DNA from: Escherichia phage Turkey3
Length of the DNA stretch: 64,000 nt
Direction: 5' to 3' (one strand)
Sequence record: PQ471515.1
The translations under genes and the position numbers were made by a program. Positions 28,355-44,773 of the stretch are shown here, in pieces; the first letter of the stretch is position 1, and each line of letters opens with the position of its first letter. Under the pieces are notes generated by a model, which did no database searches, was not told where the DNA came from, and saw nothing but the letters and a program-made list of their open reading frames with translations.

Positions 28355-28606
28355 ATGAAAGTACTGACAGAATTAGAAATGTATCATAGATTTAACAAGT
28401 ACTATCATTTACTTAAACCTATACAGAGGATTAAGTGTCCCTTTGTAGTGAAACAGGTATTAATTTATGAGCATAAGTTATTTGTATCATTAGGTACGAA
28501 TGAACAAGAGTATTATTTGAAGTTGTACTTAATTACATTAATAGATTTAATTCACTATAAAACCACACAATCTAAACAAGCTAATAAAGAGAAATATGAA
28601 AACTAA
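28355..28606 (+). CDS. family A small protein
   Basis: ATG right after previous stop; LGTNEQEYYL. Confidence 0.55.
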   Translation: MKVLTELEMYHRFNKYYHLLKPIQRIKCPFVVKQVLIYEHKLFVSLGTNEQEYYLKLYLITLIDLIHYKTTQSKQANKEKYEN

Positions 28607-28934
28607 TATACAACTCAAGGTTTATAAATCATTTGCAAGTACATACATCAAATGCTATACATGTAACTATGTAATGGACTACAAAGGTAAGCCATTTACA
28701 CTTACTTACGATAATACAAGAGGTTTTTATATATCTTTTGCTGATTACAAATATAACATATACGAACACATTGACATTGAAGATTTAAGTACTTTATCAC
28801 AAGAAGAATACTTTCAAGAATCATTAGTATGGGATTTAGAGTTCCCTATGTCATTAGTACATAAAATGATAGTACTAATAAAAGAAACTAAGCCTGTACC
28901 TAATGGTTATGAAGATCACATTATTGAGTATTAA
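28596..28934 (+). CDS. family B protein (EEYFQES module)
   Basis: DLSTLSQEEYFQESLVWDLEFPM; paralog of next gene. Confidence 0.6.
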   Translation: MKTNIQLKVYKSFASTYIKCYTCNYVMDYKGKPFTLTYDNTRGFYISFADYKYNIYEHIDIEDLSTLSQEEYFQESLVWDLEFPMSLVHKMIVLIKETKPVPNGYEDHIIEY

Positions 28935-28948
28935 TATATAAGGTAACT

Positions 28949-29290
28949 ATGAAAACTAATATACAACTCAACGTATACAGTTCAGAAGAACATACATATA
29001 TCAAATGCAGTCTATGTAAAGATGTAATGGACTACAAAGGTAAGCCATTCACAATTACTTATGATTCTGATGTTAATGATTTATATATATCATTTCTTAA
29101 TTACGAAAATAAAATATACAAGCACGTTGATATTAAAGATTTAAGTACTTTATCACCAGAGGAATACTTTCAGGAATCGTTAGTATGGGATTTGGAGTTT
29201 CCTATGCCATTAGTACATAAAATGGTAGTCCAAATGAAAGAAGCTAAACCGGAGTTTAACGGTTATGAAGAACACACAATTGAGTATTAA
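28949..29290 (+). CDS. family B protein
   Basis: DLSTLSPEEYFQESLVWDLEFPM; RBS AAGG. Confidence 0.6.
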   Translation: MKTNIQLNVYSSEEHTYIKCSLCKDVMDYKGKPFTITYDSDVNDLYISFLNYENKIYKHVDIKDLSTLSPEEYFQESLVWDLEFPMPLVHKMVVQMKEAKPEFNGYEEHTIEY

Positions 29291-29521
29291 ATGAAAAGAT
29301 TATCATACGAAGATTACACCAATCTTATCAGGACTTTACAACCACAAATACAACAAATAAATTCTCTTCCTATACCCCAAGAAGAACGTGCAGTACTGAA
29401 AGATGAGTTAATTTTAAAATGCACAGTAGGAACAAACTATCAAGCTGATAGTGTTCGATATTTAATTTGGGGTTTAATGAGTATAATAGAGAACAAAGCA
29501 GTTGACAGTACTCTATTGTAG
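29291..29521 (+). CDS. family A small protein
   Basis: VGTNYQADSV; starts right after previous stop. Confidence 0.6.
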   Translation: MKRLSYEDYTNLIRTLQPQIQQINSLPIPQEERAVLKDELILKCTVGTNYQADSVRYLIWGLMSIIENKAVDSTLL

Positions 29522-29561
29522 TGCTATAGTACATGAACGTTAATCATTAGGGTAGAAAATT

Positions 29562-29807
29562 ATGTTGAATTTTTTAAATTTCCTTATCGTCTTGTGTATT
29601 GTTCTTGGGATTGCACCATTTGTATTGTATTTCATGGATTCAGATGAAATGCAGAAGATGAATTGTACAAGGACAGGACAGAGTAGAGTAGAGACGATTC
29701 TTATGCCTGTTACGGTTATTGTTAACAACATGCCCATTACCAACATGGTCCCTACCCTAACGACAACGTACCAGTACTCTTGTACAGACGGAGAGAGGTG
29801 GAGATAA
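29562..29807 (+). CDS. small membrane protein (N-terminal TM helix)
   Basis: MLNFLNFLIVLCIVLGIAPFVLYF; RBS GGGTAG; + strand consistent with array. Confidence 0.5.
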   Translation: MLNFLNFLIVLCIVLGIAPFVLYFMDSDEMQKMNCTRTGQSRVETILMPVTVIVNNMPITNMVPTLTTTYQYSCTDGERWR

Positions 29808-42254: not shown

Positions 42255-42675
42255 TAAAGCAAAAGAACTACAGGCATATATTGAAGATATTAAGGCTGGG
42301 AAGTTCGAAGAAGTATACAAAGCCGAGAATGGTAACTACTACAAGGATTGTGATTTTGCTACAACTACAGTTATTCTTGGGTTGAATTCCAAAAGTCCCG
42401 CAGATTTTTCACAATACAATCCAGATGCAGAATTTATCAGTTATGCTTATGGTGGTGAAATCCGTTTTTATAATCGCAGCAGACCTTTAAAATTGAACTT
42501 TGAAGTACTGAAAGGTCCGTGGGATAGTGAAGAGTATTACTTTCAGAATAGTACTTTGTATGATAATGAAGTACTAGATACTTTAGTTATTATGTGGTAC
42601 TTTAAAAGTATTGATAGCACAAGATTTTATTTGGATTATGAATATGTACGTGAAGCATATAAGGGTAAACGATGA
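42232..42675 (+). CDS. family B protein (WYF subtype)
   Basis: DSEEYYFQNSTLYDNEVLDTLVIMWYFKS. Confidence 0.6.
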   Translation: MSLRSALDKAKELQAYIEDIKAGKFEEVYKAENGNYYKDCDFATTTVILGLNSKSPADFSQYNPDAEFISYAYGGEIRFYNRSRPLKLNFEVLKGPWDSEEYYFQNSTLYDNEVLDTLVIMWYFKSIDSTRFYLDYEYVREAYKGKR

Positions 42676-42986
42676 AATTCTTATACAGTATTCAGTACAT
42701 TCCTGGTACAATTAGTTTAATGTATTTCTTCGATCATGATAATTTCCAGCACCTTGCCGTTAGAAGATGTAATGAATCTTTAATGATTGAATATCTTCAC
42801 GATTGTGATTATATTCCTGACTTCCTTGAATGTGATTACAGAGATGATCATGAAACATTTCTTTTTCAGGAATCACTTATATGGGATAAGAGAATTAATT
42901 TTCATGCCTTAATTGAGATACAAAAACAAGTGAAGTACTACTGGGATTACTTAATTACCCAAGAATATATAGAGATTGAAATATAA
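42672..42986 (+). CDS. family B protein
   Basis: HETFLFQESLIWDKRINFHALIEIQ. Confidence 0.55.
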   Translation: MKFLYSIQYIPGTISLMYFFDHDNFQHLAVRRCNESLMIEYLHDCDYIPDFLECDYRDDHETFLFQESLIWDKRINFHALIEIQKQVKYYWDYLITQEYIEIEI

Positions 42987-43429
42987 TGTACGAAAGTGAT
43001 CTTAAGCACGCTGAGGAATTAGTTAATATAGTAAAGTTCTTTCAAAATAATGTAAAGTACTTAGACTATAAAGGGGCATATATTAGTACTATAAGTGTTG
43101 GAACAGATATTCTAGGATTAGGTAATGAATATAAGTACGAGTCACATGATTATGATTTGGAATTCAAGTACTTCGTATGGGATTCTGGAACTTTCTATTC
43201 TATAGAGGAAGATGGCAAATATTTTGAATTCACAGAAGAAGAAGTACTATTTTTAAATTCAGAAGATGCTTACTTCCAGTACAGTACTATATACCCAAAT
43301 GGGGCGTTAAGAGCTTTAGTAGTTTTTAATGCATTCCTGAAAGAGAACTTTAATAATTCTATATTCATTGATTTAGATTATGTATATGAACTAAATCAGG
43401 TGATATATATGGAGTCCAGAAAAAAATGA
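42986..43429 (+). CDS. family B protein
   Basis: SEDAYFQYSTIYPNG. Confidence 0.55.
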   Translation: MYESDLKHAEELVNIVKFFQNNVKYLDYKGAYISTISVGTDILGLGNEYKYESHDYDLEFKYFVWDSGTFYSIEEDGKYFEFTEEEVLFLNSEDAYFQYSTIYPNGALRALVVFNAFLKENFNNSIFIDLDYVYELNQVIYMESRKK

Positions 43430-43872
43430 GTTACGAAAGTGCAATCAAGAAAGCAAATGATATTCTAAAAGTTGTTAAGTTCTTCAAAGAAAATCCTGAA
43501 TACGTAGATGATGAACGAAGAGAAGTTTCTAATGGTACGAAGATTACAATTGATTCTTTATTTGACACTAGCAACAACAACTGTAGTACTATTGAATTAG
43601 CATACGATTATATTTCATTGAACAGAAAATATGATGAAGTTACGATAGAGCGTCATGAGAATGAAGAATCTTTTAAAATTTCTGATATTTTATCTCTGAG
43701 TACAGAAGAAGGGTACTTCCAGGGAAGTACTGTTTATAATGAAGGAACACTAGACAATCTATGTACATTTAGTGTACTATATCAGAAGTCAGTATTGGAT
43801 ATATTTTATCTAGACACTGAAAAACTTGATAGGTTAGTTGATTTCGTTACTATAGAAGAGGCATCCGTTTGA
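43426..43872 (+). CDS. family B protein
   Basis: TEEGYFQGSTVYNEG. Confidence 0.55.
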   Translation: MSYESAIKKANDILKVVKFFKENPEYVDDERREVSNGTKITIDSLFDTSNNNCSTIELAYDYISLNRKYDEVTIERHENEESFKISDILSLSTEEGYFQGSTVYNEGTLDNLCTFSVLYQKSVLDIFYLDTEKLDRLVDFVTIEEASV

Positions 43873-44405
43873 GAAAAATTAACATTAATGATTATGATGC
43901 ATTACAAGATTTATCAAAAAAGATTCGCACTATCGTACCAGTACTGAAGAAATGCAGTACTGGATTAATCGATCCTAGTACTGTTGTTAATGAGAAGTAC
44001 AATTTTCATTATGTATTACAGGGTACTGGGGCATTCCAGAAGTGTGAGGTGCGTGAGAAACACGTAATTGATACATCATTGTTTTCTATTGGTGCACCTA
44101 TGTCGAATAATACTATTTTCCTGGATGACGCAGGAAATATTCAACAATTAACATTTAAGAAAAGGAAAAAGAACAATAACATTGGTGTGTACGCGATGAA
44201 GTGGGGTCAACCTGATTTGAAGCGTGAAATTCACATCCCTAAGTACAATTACAATTCATTTGAAGAACAGTGCTTTCAACTATCTTGTACTGATCCTGAC
44301 TATGCTATTATTCAGTTCTATATGGAATTGCAGATTGCATTTAACAGTAATTTGTATATTAACTTATTGGCGATGAACATCGATGAAGTATTCAAAAACA
44401 TTTAA
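43869..44405 (+). CDS. family B-like protein
   Basis: FEEQCFQLSCTDPD; track start is TTG overlapping previous stop, true start uncertain. Confidence 0.45.
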   Translation: MRKININDYDALQDLSKKIRTIVPVLKKCSTGLIDPSTVVNEKYNFHYVLQGTGAFQKCEVREKHVIDTSLFSIGAPMSNNTIFLDDAGNIQQLTFKKRKKNNNIGVYAMKWGQPDLKREIHIPKYNYNSFEEQCFQLSCTDPDYAIIQFYMELQIAFNSNLYINLLAMNIDEVFKNI

Positions 44406-44601
44406 TCGAATTGAATACATGAGAACTGTGAGTGCAGTGTGGGACATATGGTTCACTACTAAACCAAAAATGGATTACCATGACTTTAAGCTATTGTTCT
44501 TCGTTGGTTCTAATAAACAGGACGTTGCAATGAAGGGTTATATTGAGCACTTACAGGAACTAATACAGAAGAGGATTTATGAAAATAATAGACCAAAGTG
44601 A
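44383..44601 (+). CDS. family A-like small protein
   Basis: FFVGSNKQDVAMKGYIEHLQELIQKRI. Confidence 0.5.
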   Translation: MKYSKTFNRIEYMRTVSAVWDIWFTTKPKMDYHDFKLLFFVGSNKQDVAMKGYIEHLQELIQKRIYENNRPK

Positions 44602-44773
44602 CATTGATAAACTCTTCGGTATATACTCTAAAAGAATGATGCAAATATCAGACTCATTTAGTACTGAATTCAAAGAGTTAAAAGTACTGATGTATTTGGG
44701 TACACAGTATCAGGAACAAGTTGTTAAAGAATATATTGATTCTTTACAGAAGGATATTCGTTATGTACAATGA
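44579..44773 (+). CDS. family A small protein
   Basis: LGTQYQEQVVKEYIDSLQKDI. Confidence 0.55.
   Translation: MKIIDQSDIDKLFGIYSKRMMQISDSFSTEFKELKVLMYLGTQYQEQVVKEYIDSLQKDIRYVQ

Follow-up and report, generated by a model that had tools for sequence, protein, structure and literature searches.

T4-type phages carry hyperplastic (plastic-periphery) regions, and terminal multigene families linked to host range and to immune evasion are found in poxviruses and African swine fever virus. In Bacillus phage SPO1, the host-takeover module sits in the terminal redundancy of the genome. The module's 26 small early genes are clustered (PMC6873191). A lineage-specific expansion to approximately 35 zinc-ribbon copies has been described in Bacillus phage G (PMC7824862), and growth of jumbo phage genomes via tandem duplication was proposed earlier, in work to which PMC7247149 refers.

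The DNA analysed here, referred to as the window, is a stretch of 64,000 nucleotides of an Asteriusvirus-type E. coli jumbo phage (Escherichia phage Turkey3; PQ471515.1). Approximately 75 tandem copies of two gene families, A and B, are located in a ~36-kb block (22.4-58.3 kb) which consists almost entirely of A and B genes. The block forms the opening of the unique part of the genome, its arrays starting at position 22460, about 100 bp past the end of a terminal-repeat-type match (22363), and it adjoins the terminal redundancy. The terminal-repeat-type region matches the final 21.5 kb of the Escherichia phage CRJP21 record (344822-366301 of 366301) and its genes are small and spaced out, many of them being equipped with a promoter-like site of their own. 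Direct terminal repeats approximately 21 kb in length have been demonstrated or predicted in the relatives fEgEco12 (PMC13070987) and Sharanji (PMC11895373). As in the phage G expansion, a small domain has reached tens of copies within one lineage of jumbo phages, but the folds are different and here two unrelated families have been expanded side by side. The locus also resembles those of T4-type phages, poxviruses and African swine fever virus in that a conserved core is flanked by fast-evolving small accessory genes of strain-variable copy number; there is, however, no homology with these systems, and a host-range or defence role would be assigned here by analogy. No description of families A and B was found in the literature searched. 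The features of the block and its context are:

1-22363, + strand: terminal-repeat-type region, context for the arrays, belonging to neither family
22460-28606, + strand: main A array, 27 genes of 64-94 aa (HMM, alignment, phrog_4148)
28596-28934 and 28949-29290, + strand: B pair, short form (112 and 113 aa; EEYFQESLVWD) (HMM)
29291-29521, + strand: lone A gene, 76 aa (HMM; E-value: 5.5e-22)
29502-29530, + strand: promoter-like site TTGACA-17-TATAGT with TG (11/12 matches; a consensus match only)
29562-29807, + strand: small membrane protein of neither family, 81 aa, with a hydrophobic N-terminus (phrog_8826)
29780-30130 and 30140-30451, + strand: B pair, short form (116 and 103 aa) (HMM; phrog_13866)
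30435-30647 and 30599-30892, + strand: A pair (70 and 97 aa as called) (HMM; E-values: 4e-20 and 7e-20)
30858-31916, + strand: four genes of neither family (ORF list; phrog_29252 for 30858-31253)
31918-44405, + strand: B array, first part, long and short forms mixed (HMM, alignments)
44383-44601 and 44579-44773, + strand: AA island in the B array (72 and 64 aa) (HMM; E-values: 2.5e-18 and 3.3e-20)
44721-58281, + strand: B array, second part, including divergent motif-bearing members missed by the HMM (HMM, motif scan)

Iterated HMMs assign 32 genes in the window to family A (E-values: 1e-18 to 1e-27), all of them on the + strand and separated by a median gap of -4 nt. The 27 contiguous genes of the main array are interrupted once, by a degenerate ORF (24376-24627). 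The A proteins are approximately 73 aa and 8.5 kDa in size, tend to be basic (median pI 8.4), contain the motif LGTNYQE and are predicted by AlphaFold to form a bundle of four helices (pLDDT 97.1). Database searches returned 97 matches, the longest contigs bearing them being of jumbo-phage size (~350 kb).

Family B comprises 43 genes by HMM (E-values: 1e-8 to 1e-26), to which a second pass added the member 37036-37380, giving at least 44, and a motif scan revealed approximately ten further divergent candidates up to ~58.3 kb. These genes are also all on the + strand, with a median intergenic gap of -4 nt. They code for acidic proteins (median pI 4.8; median net charge -8) of 103-213 aa (12-25 kDa), comprising long (146-213 aa) and short forms (103-138 aa), with the invariant helix motif EExxFQxS at their core. 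In the AlphaFold model of the product of 41766-42254, an N-terminal helix is followed by seven short strands and four more helices (pLDDT 85.5), and this predicted alpha/beta fold has no match among solved structures. Homologs were found in 131 representative clusters (E ≤ 1e-3) among 1.84 billion proteins, and proteins related at the level of the fold occur in RaK2, GAP32 and Serratia phage BF. Of the 130 representatives checked, nearly all contain the motif, while 75 share less than 50% identity with the four genomes compared. Family B is a wide and old family.

An aromatic-Q-E core (YQE in A and FQES in B) had been ascribed to both families in the original prediction. The glutamine is invariant in both, being present in 32/32 A proteins, where it is preceded by an aromatic residue in 24, and preceded by phenylalanine in 43/43 B proteins, but glutamate follows it in only 20/32 and 12/43 proteins, respectively. 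As F-Q is invariant while the next residue is so rarely E, and S occupies position +2 in 36/43 members, the B signature is not FQES; the consensus reads [LM][ST]-E-E-x-[YLF]-F-Q-x-S-[LT]-[VI].

The ORF list and iterated HMMs confirmed the predicted gene order at the boundary between the arrays, BB-A-membrane protein-BB-AA, and the HMMs likewise recovered the two A genes predicted deep inside the B array (44383-44773). The first B pair, 28596 and 28949, represents a recent tandem duplicate, the two copies sharing 71% identity, and A4 and 121Q each contain one copy in its place. A 91% identical ortholog of the lone A gene 29291 is present in A4, while 121Q lacks both this gene, with the neighbouring B retained, and a counterpart of the B gene 29780. 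The promoter-like site 29502-29530 starts in the last 20 bases of this A gene and ends before the membrane-protein gene, which has a 59% identical ortholog at the same position in Turkey5 and a homolog in the metagenome contig L009. The B gene 30140 has positional orthologs in Turkey5 (47% identity) and 121Q (85%), and in Turkey5 the B ortholog is immediately followed by the positional ortholog of the A gene 30599. The real start codons of the A genes 30435 and 30599 are probably internal to the called ORFs. The four genes that follow lack a match to the A and B HMMs, and one of them (31587-31916) encodes a signal-peptide protein. The first part of the B array contains the member added in the second pass (37036-37380) as well as a truncated copy (39076-39240). 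Orthologs of the AA island genes in 121Q show 94% and 81% identity. In Turkey5, the A gene 44579 is matched by the A gene 20828-21037, directly after the best match of the B gene 43869, and 44383 is matched by a separate A gene (14670-14864).

Families A and B together constitute one hypervariable block. Identity to Turkey5 is 88-100% for the genes in 17162-22002 with orthologs in the Turkey5 stretch compared, falls to 22-64% across both arrays, with one A gene reaching 79%, and is mostly 65-93% from approximately 56 kb onwards. Identity to A4 is mosaic, genes at 91-97% standing beside genes at 26-45%. Gene order is collinear with the relatives (62/69, 94/97 and 103/103 reciprocal best hits), and copy number varies, the window and its relatives containing 32, 25, 26 and 21 A genes and, in the same order, 43, 40, 40 and 35 B genes. 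The dN/dS ratios are 0.39 (A), 0.25 (B) and 0.19 (other genes) in comparison with 121Q, and 0.40, 0.39 and 0.23, respectively, in comparison with A4. These A and B values of 0.25-0.40, above those of the other genes, indicate that the families are constrained yet relaxed; being gene-wide ratios below 1, they do not demonstrate positive selection. Each family matches 35 phage records; the breakdown by species and the entries listed do not differ between A and B and comprise Asteriusvirus, four Salmonella phages, JNE01 and Turkey5. Both families display the paralogy, copy-number change under selection and restricted range of tandemly expanded, lineage-specific multigene families.

Consensus sigma-70-like sites, perfect or near-perfect, are situated within the rare gaps between genes or at their edges (29502-29530, 35073-35101, 47141-47170 and 51022-51050). 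The perfect site 47141-47170 covers the last bases of the gene 46554-47144 and part of the gap before 47204, while that at 51022-51050 lies within the gap 50990-51078, near a hairpin with a T-run (50989-51008). Promoter-like site totals are no higher than expected from shuffles (105 versus 121.6; 111 versus 105.3). In the related phage CBB, RpoD-type promoters have been assigned to a suspected early region, possibly extending into the terminal repeat (PMC5259590), and host-type promoters would suggest early timing for the block. The phAPEC6 orthologs of the A and B genes (gp404c-gp489c) do not figure in the virion proteome table of that phage, which has no entries between gp347 and gp549, so that by their absence in this one relative the products do not appear to be virion components. 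Like the SPO1 module, the block is a dense cluster of small genes at a genome end, with putative host-type promoters and with products that are apparently not part of the virion, and at least one SPO1 product, the ClpCP adaptor-like Gp53, binds a host machine. The SPO1 genes are, however, mostly unrelated to one another, whereas two large paralog families dominate here, the present block lies just outside the terminal repeat, and its early timing is suggested by promoter type. No sequence or fold relation of A or B to the SPO1 module was found.

On balance, we consider it probable that the block holds co-expressed, fast-diversifying, non-virion accessory genes, belonging to two unrelated tandem families without one-to-one pairing. 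Their location on a single strand with mostly overlapping stop and start codons suggests that A and B are probably co-expressed from a small number of long transcripts, possibly early in infection. Each family would have grown by local duplication, with copies still being gained, lost and exchanged, and the A genes among the B genes may be remnants of an older mixed order later swamped by family-specific expansions. Purifying selection would maintain the block while its divergence far outpaces that of the flanks, a combination to be expected if the accessory proteins bound host or defence targets, with a different one for each. The A and B products may be pictured as small soluble proteins, each with a putative target of its own.

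The two families had originally been described as interleaved, and a functional link was proposed on that basis. There is a boundary zone in which the two are mixed, and a single AA island, but overall the families are strongly segregated: when only A and B genes are counted, they form 8 runs, compared to 37.7 ± 4.2 in shuffled orders (minimum of 20,000 shuffles: 21). Strong segregation is also observed in A4, 121Q, Turkey5 and two Turkey5-like contigs, while in one metagenomic lineage (L009) A and B are nearly randomly mixed (11 runs versus 15.0 ± 2.6; P = 0.08). The slight interleaving is real and inherited. Adjacency of A and B is conserved in the relatives, with the B-to-A junctions and the membrane-protein gene being positional orthologs in A4, 121Q and Turkey5. 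The shared strand, the mostly overlapping start and stop codons and the common hypervariable block show that a loose link, in the form of a probable shared expression unit and a common evolutionary regime, is real, but one-to-one pairing is disfavoured.

That A and B are physical or functional partners, with A regulating or neutralising the neighbouring B or the two forming heteromers, and with the interleaving reflecting co-selected cassettes, is unlikely, although several observations point in this direction. Every genome or contig with family A also has adjoining B, positional orthologs of the junctions 30140/30599 and 43869/44579 exist in Turkey5 although identities are 30-54%, and the order in L009 approaches a random mixture. 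Furthermore, the junction genes overlap or abut (-53 to 0 nt), which suggests coupled translation, and the basic tendency of A is matched by the acidic character of B. Adjacent small genes, overlapping stop and start codons and such a basic versus acidic tendency are reminiscent of toxin-antitoxin and effector-immunity pairs, but unlike in these, there is no 1:1 alternation, numbers are unequal (32 A versus at least 44 B), 27 A genes follow each other without a B, and B occurs without A. In 121Q and A4, gains and losses of boundary members have been independent, as seen in the absence of 29291 from 121Q, and divergence is uncoupled, A sharing 66% and B 39% identity with A4. Conservation of the junctions, moreover, does not exceed the collinearity seen across the region as a whole. 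B arrays of 29, 35 and 20 genes in three metagenome contigs (L005, L006 and L007) and of at least 16 genes in Salmonella phage 7t3 have no A in the sampled, partial DNA, which makes obligate pairing unlikely. Strict cognate pairs, as one form of the co-functioning originally proposed, are therefore disfavoured, while the conserved junctions and the mixed order of L009 leave room for a true functional tie between some A and some B.

It is quite improbable that the arrays are useless DNA, amplified selfishly or neutrally and tolerated on account of the spare room in a headful-packaging jumbo phage. The high turnover, variable copy number and truncated copy would fit such an origin, as would the dN/dS in excess of the flanks and the fact that the databases searched yield no function for A or B. 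However, dN/dS is clearly below 1, the genes have intact reading frames and are densely packed, the motif residues are invariant in 43 paralogs and nearly so among the database representatives, the AlphaFold models are confident and one-to-one orthologs are kept in collinear order in Turkey5, all of which argue against this reading.

The original prediction also entertained A and B as distant relatives, but very distant homology with a common ancestral aromatic-Q-E core is highly improbable: both families do have an invariant Gln, located inside a helix or at its first residue in both models and following an aromatic residue in most A and all B members, yet this common element amounts to two residues, the A and B HMMs fail to cross-match among 167 proteins (best E-values: 0.04 for the B model with an A gene and 0.57 for the A model with a B gene), and the hhalign probabilities of A with whole B, and likewise with its core, its C-terminal module and its N-terminal extension, are 0.1-0.2%, compared to 99.6% and 98.1% for control alignments of half against half inside each family. 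The predicted folds also differ, four helices in A versus a helix, a seven-strand sheet and helices in B. By profiles and predicted folds, A and B are unrelated families. Equally improbable is the notion that a protease, either 3C/TEV-like or a phage maturation enzyme, cleaves at the B motif, ExxYFQ(G/S), and that the B proteins are processed precursors or packaged proteins, since, for all its resemblance to the TEV consensus ExxYxQ(G/S) and two exact matches (EEGYFQG in 43426-43872 and EEMYFQG in 47683-48165), F113-Q114 lies within helix 109-117 of the model (mean pLDDT of the blocks 96-97) and in no exposed, flexible loop, Q is mostly followed by E, Y, Q or L instead of a G or S, with G in 2/43 members, and the phAPEC6 orthologs are missing from the virion proteome.

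No match of A or B to known toxin or antitoxin families was detected, the lone hit being that of 1/43 B members to Pfam DUF2283 (E = 0.1), below the gathering threshold. DUF2283 is also the name given in UniRef to a match, P0110. This P0110 protein shares 71% identity with a protein of the window and derives from a 1-kb contig labelled Actinomadura.

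Simple ORF calls on the + strand, in which several start codons are uncertain, were grouped by iterated HMM searches into two families. Family A comprises 32 members of 64-97 amino acids, 27 of which form a single run (22460-28606), and has the core motif L-G-T-[ND]-[YHF]-Q-[ED]. Family B comprises 43 members of 103-213 amino acids, extending from 28596 to 58281, with the core motif [LM][ST]-E-E-x-[YLF]-F-Q-x-S-[LT]-[VI]; an additional member, 37036-37380, was recruited in the second pass, as the sole gain of an unstable HMM iteration, and approximately ten further ORFs carry a degenerate B motif. 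The family A members outside the main run, assigned by HMM and named, as are genes below, by ORF start, are:

29291, + strand, family A gene
30435, + strand, family A gene
30599, + strand, family A gene
44383, + strand, family A gene
44579, + strand, family A gene

The layout originally described is borne out, with two B genes, an A gene, an 81 amino acid protein with a hydrophobic N-terminus, two B genes and two A genes, and a later A pair within the B array. To call the families interleaved is, however, too strong, as the A and B genes alone form 8 runs versus 37.7 ± 4.2 in shuffled orders, and run counts reveal the same segregated pattern in A4, 121Q and Turkey5. A 54 amino acid ORF (39076-39240; MMEFDFVISVHSFKNSFQYFCNLNKGD) is a truncated N-terminal copy of the B gene at 39608-39964 (MEFDFLISVHTFKHSYQYFCNLNKGD), and is likely a gene remnant within the array.

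The two families had been proposed as possible distant relatives sharing an aromatic-Q-E core. The aromatic-Q pair does occur in both, but the E is not a consistent feature of family B, where it follows the Q in only 12 of the 43 members. When the A profile was compared by hhalign with that of B, the probability was 0.15%; for the parts of B it was 0.14% (core), 0.20% (C-terminal module) and 0.10% (N-terminal extension of the long forms), versus 99.6% (family A) and 98.1% (B C-terminal module) in split-half controls, the latter values indicating that the method works on these profiles. The predicted folds likewise differ. The AlphaFold model of a family A protein (24823-25041; 72-sequence alignment; pLDDT: 97.1) consists of four helices, while that of a family B protein (41766-42254; 52 sequences; pLDDT: 85.5; pTM: 0.82) shows an N-terminal helix, seven short strands and, after these, four further helices plus a single short strand, with the invariant F113-Q114 inside helix 109-117 (mean pLDDT of the residue blocks: 96-97). 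These models suggest that the aromatic-Q pair is a two-residue coincidence in differing structural settings. Homology between A and B is not detectable and, as judged by profiles and predicted folds, the proposed relationship is refuted.

The FQ motif was also considered as a protease site, which was rejected given its predicted location within a confident helix. Two B proteins contain the exact TEV consensus ExxYxQG, namely EEGYFQG (43426-43872) and EEMYFQG (47683-48165). These matches are probably coincidental, since in the model of a paralog the motif falls within a helix, and would be of practical concern if the two proteins were expressed with TEV-cleavable tags.

The homologous regions of three further genomes were classified by HMM.

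Order of family A and B genes in homologous regions (dots denote other genes)
A4: A×20, B, A,., BB, AA ... B×6, AA ...
121Q: ... A, B,., B, AA ... BB, AA, B ...
Turkey5: ... A, B, A, BBBB, ...., A, .., B×9,., B, .., A, BBBB ...

The genes at the A/B junctions have positional orthologs in Turkey5:

Membrane protein 29562: Turkey5 10095, 59% identity
Family B gene 30140: Turkey5 10567, 47% identity
Family A gene 30599: Turkey5 10856, 30% identity
Family B gene 43869: Turkey5 20295, 33% identity
Family A gene 44579: Turkey5 20828, 54% identity

Conservation of the junctions reflects the general collinearity of the region, in which 62/69, 94/97 and 103/103 reciprocal best hits preserve the gene order, and does not exceed it. 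Boundary members have furthermore been gained or lost independently: 121Q lacks the A gene 29291 and a counterpart of the B gene 29780, while the pair 28596/28949 is represented by a single copy in both 121Q and A4.

In tblastn searches, one A and one B protein each matched 35 phage records, the two sets agreeing in species breakdown and in the entries listed. B arrays of 29, 35 and 20 genes are present on three metagenome contigs (L005, L006 and L007, respectively) with no A gene in the DNA sampled, and Salmonella phage 7t3 encodes at least 16 B proteins, with no A gene in the 50 kb ending at its Dam methylase gene, the product of which shares 65.5% identity with that of the window. Family A is always accompanied by B, and B does not require A nearby. 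As such, obligate pairing of A and B is unlikely from the gene contents compared. A 41-kb metagenome contig, L009, carries 12 A and 17 B genes in a near-random mix (11 runs versus 15.0 ± 2.6; P = 0.08), and such mixing may predate the segregated arrangement. A neighbour-joining tree had suggested an ancient "island" subfamily of A linked to B, which a best-hit test in the metagenomic lineage did not support (2/12 top hits, the chance level). A signal-peptide-like protein (31587-31916) and a small membrane protein (29562-29807) are both located between A and B genes; their homologs in L009 (2882-3235 and 8140-8412) indicate that a few genes of neither family are conserved alongside the arrays.

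All array genes are on the same strand, with a median intergenic distance of -4 nt in each family and distances of -53 to 0 nt at the five A/B junctions. The array genes are therefore likely co-transcribed, with coupled translation. Sigma-70-like consensus sites occur at the rare gaps:

29502-29530, in or at the edge of a rare gap
35073-35101, in or at the edge of a rare gap, after a hairpin
47141-47170, 12/12 consensus, in or at the edge of a rare gap
51022-51050, 12/12 consensus, in a gap, after a hairpin with a T-run

Their placement is suggestive at most, as sites of this type are no more numerous overall than expected by chance. A suspected early region of the related phage CBB is marked by RpoD-type promoters, and this region may continue into the terminal repeat (PMC5259590). 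The phAPEC6 orthologs, gp404c-gp489c, are absent from the virion proteome of that phage.

The two families also share an evolutionary regime.

Divergence of families A and B and of other genes (dN/dS was estimated pairwise by the Nei-Gojobori method, taking no account of recombination)
dN/dS against 121Q: A 0.39; B 0.25; other genes 0.19
dN/dS against A4: A 0.40; B 0.39; other genes 0.23
Median identity of best-hit pairs to Turkey5: A 41%; B 34%; other genes 86%

The A and B genes are real and constrained, though less so than their neighbours. Upstream genes to 22002 share 88-100% identity with Turkey5. Identity drops to 22-64% at 22654, the first A gene for which Turkey5 has an ortholog, and stays in that range across both arrays, one A gene at 79% excepted; beyond approximately 56 kb most genes are at 65-93% and a few remain near 35%. 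Together the A and B arrays (22460-58281) make up a single hypervariable block, the upstream edge of which is sharp and the downstream edge more gradual. Comparison with A4 reveals a mosaic, with B genes at 91-97% identity beside neighbours at 26-45%, which suggests that single genes or small blocks have been exchanged.

The interpretation we favour is that two unrelated families, each expanded in tandem, constitute one co-expressed, non-virion, fast-diversifying accessory block adjoining the terminal repeat, and that the few A genes lying among the B genes are inherited remnants of how the arrays evolved. The functional link originally predicted is supported in a loose form, through transcription units and a selective regime in common, but probably does not extend to obligate pairing, given the B arrays without A in the sampled DNA; interleaving by itself is no indication of such a link here. 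The position of the block, the small size and hypervariability of its proteins and the acidity of B (median pI 4.8) make a role in host takeover or counter-defence the most plausible guess. Family B, perhaps assisted by A, might more specifically provide diversified early anti-host or anti-defence binders on one scaffold. The invariant acidic helix ([LM][ST]EExxFQxS[LT][VI]) would serve as a handle for a common partner, the hypervariable sheet would recognise differing targets, and A genes retained amid B genes would act on their neighbours as specific modulators. We consider this combined proposal improbable as a whole; if true, the adaptor families of large eukaryotic viruses would have a counterpart in a phage, taking up approximately 10% of its genome. 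The contrast between 22-64% identity in the block and 88-100% upstream is a mark of host-conflict loci, making the block a sensible place to seek new inhibitors of host or defence proteins.

Two families unnamed in any database account for around one tenth of a jumbo phage genome (~350-380 kb), or some 75 genes. No Pfam or NCBIfam family was reached by any of the members, all of which were scanned (weak singleton matches only), profiles of both families found nothing among PDB sequences, and the literature searched contained no description of either. In PHROGs, A corresponds to phrog_4148 and B is divided among at least 25 families, none with a known function. Database searches gave 97 hits for family A, the longest carrier contigs being of jumbo-phage size (~350 kb). 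For family B, a search of 1.84 billion proteins gave 131 representative clusters (E ≤ 1e-3); 75 of 130 checked representatives are less than 50% identical to the four compared genomes, and nearly all 130 retain the motif. Among viral models, Foldseek matched the B fold to four proteins of Klebsiella phage RaK2, near-consecutive in accession, and to Serratia phage BF and Cronobacter phage GAP32. These clusters and fold matches suggest that B is an old family of RaK2-like jumbo phages, and A a narrower one. The fold of B is confidently predicted and has no solved relative, and at fold level the family extends across these phages. The UniRef match P0110 (87 amino acids; 71% identity to the B gene 28596), from a 1-kb contig deposited as Actinomadura adrarensis, is probably phage contamination of that assembly. 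Its deposited name, "DUF2283 domain-containing", is doubtful, and DUF2283 was rejected as an identity for family B, as the name derives from the UniRef label only and the match was not reproduced.

By megablast, the window belongs to an E. coli jumbo phage of the genus Asteriusvirus (121Q, PBECO4, phAPEC6, fEgEco12, vB_Ec-M-J). Window 1-22363 corresponds to the final 21.5 kb of the CRJP21 record, and direct terminal repeats of ~21 kb have been confirmed by restriction digests in fEgEco12 (PMC13070987) and predicted in Sharanji (PMC11895373), on which grounds the first 22 kb represent terminal-repeat-type DNA. The arrays start approximately 100 bp past it.

At the very start of the window, within the terminal-repeat-type DNA, a third small family (93-1091) comprises five tandem paralogs of 60-69 amino acids with the pattern M-x-KE-[HY]-K-[ED]-[YF]-Y-I. 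Several two-copy paralog pairs are also found in this DNA (3512-3814/5618-5857, 9445-9768/16286-16609, 3864-4166/16696-17100 and 17413-17688/17689-17988), indicating that duplication is not limited to families A and B. Spurious-looking ORFs beginning MFYIE[RS]G recur at 3062, 8546, 19630 and 20605 and mark a repeated intergenic module, one copy of which has a perfect TTGACA-16-TATAAT site (20579-20606). The few nameable genes near the arrays (17963-18604, 13675-13932, 13996-14352 and 63090-63614) encode a kinase-like protein, a DksA-like zinc-finger protein, an acetyltransferase and a Dam-type DNA adenine methyltransferase; the Turkey5 ortholog of the first carries the annotation serine/threonine kinase.
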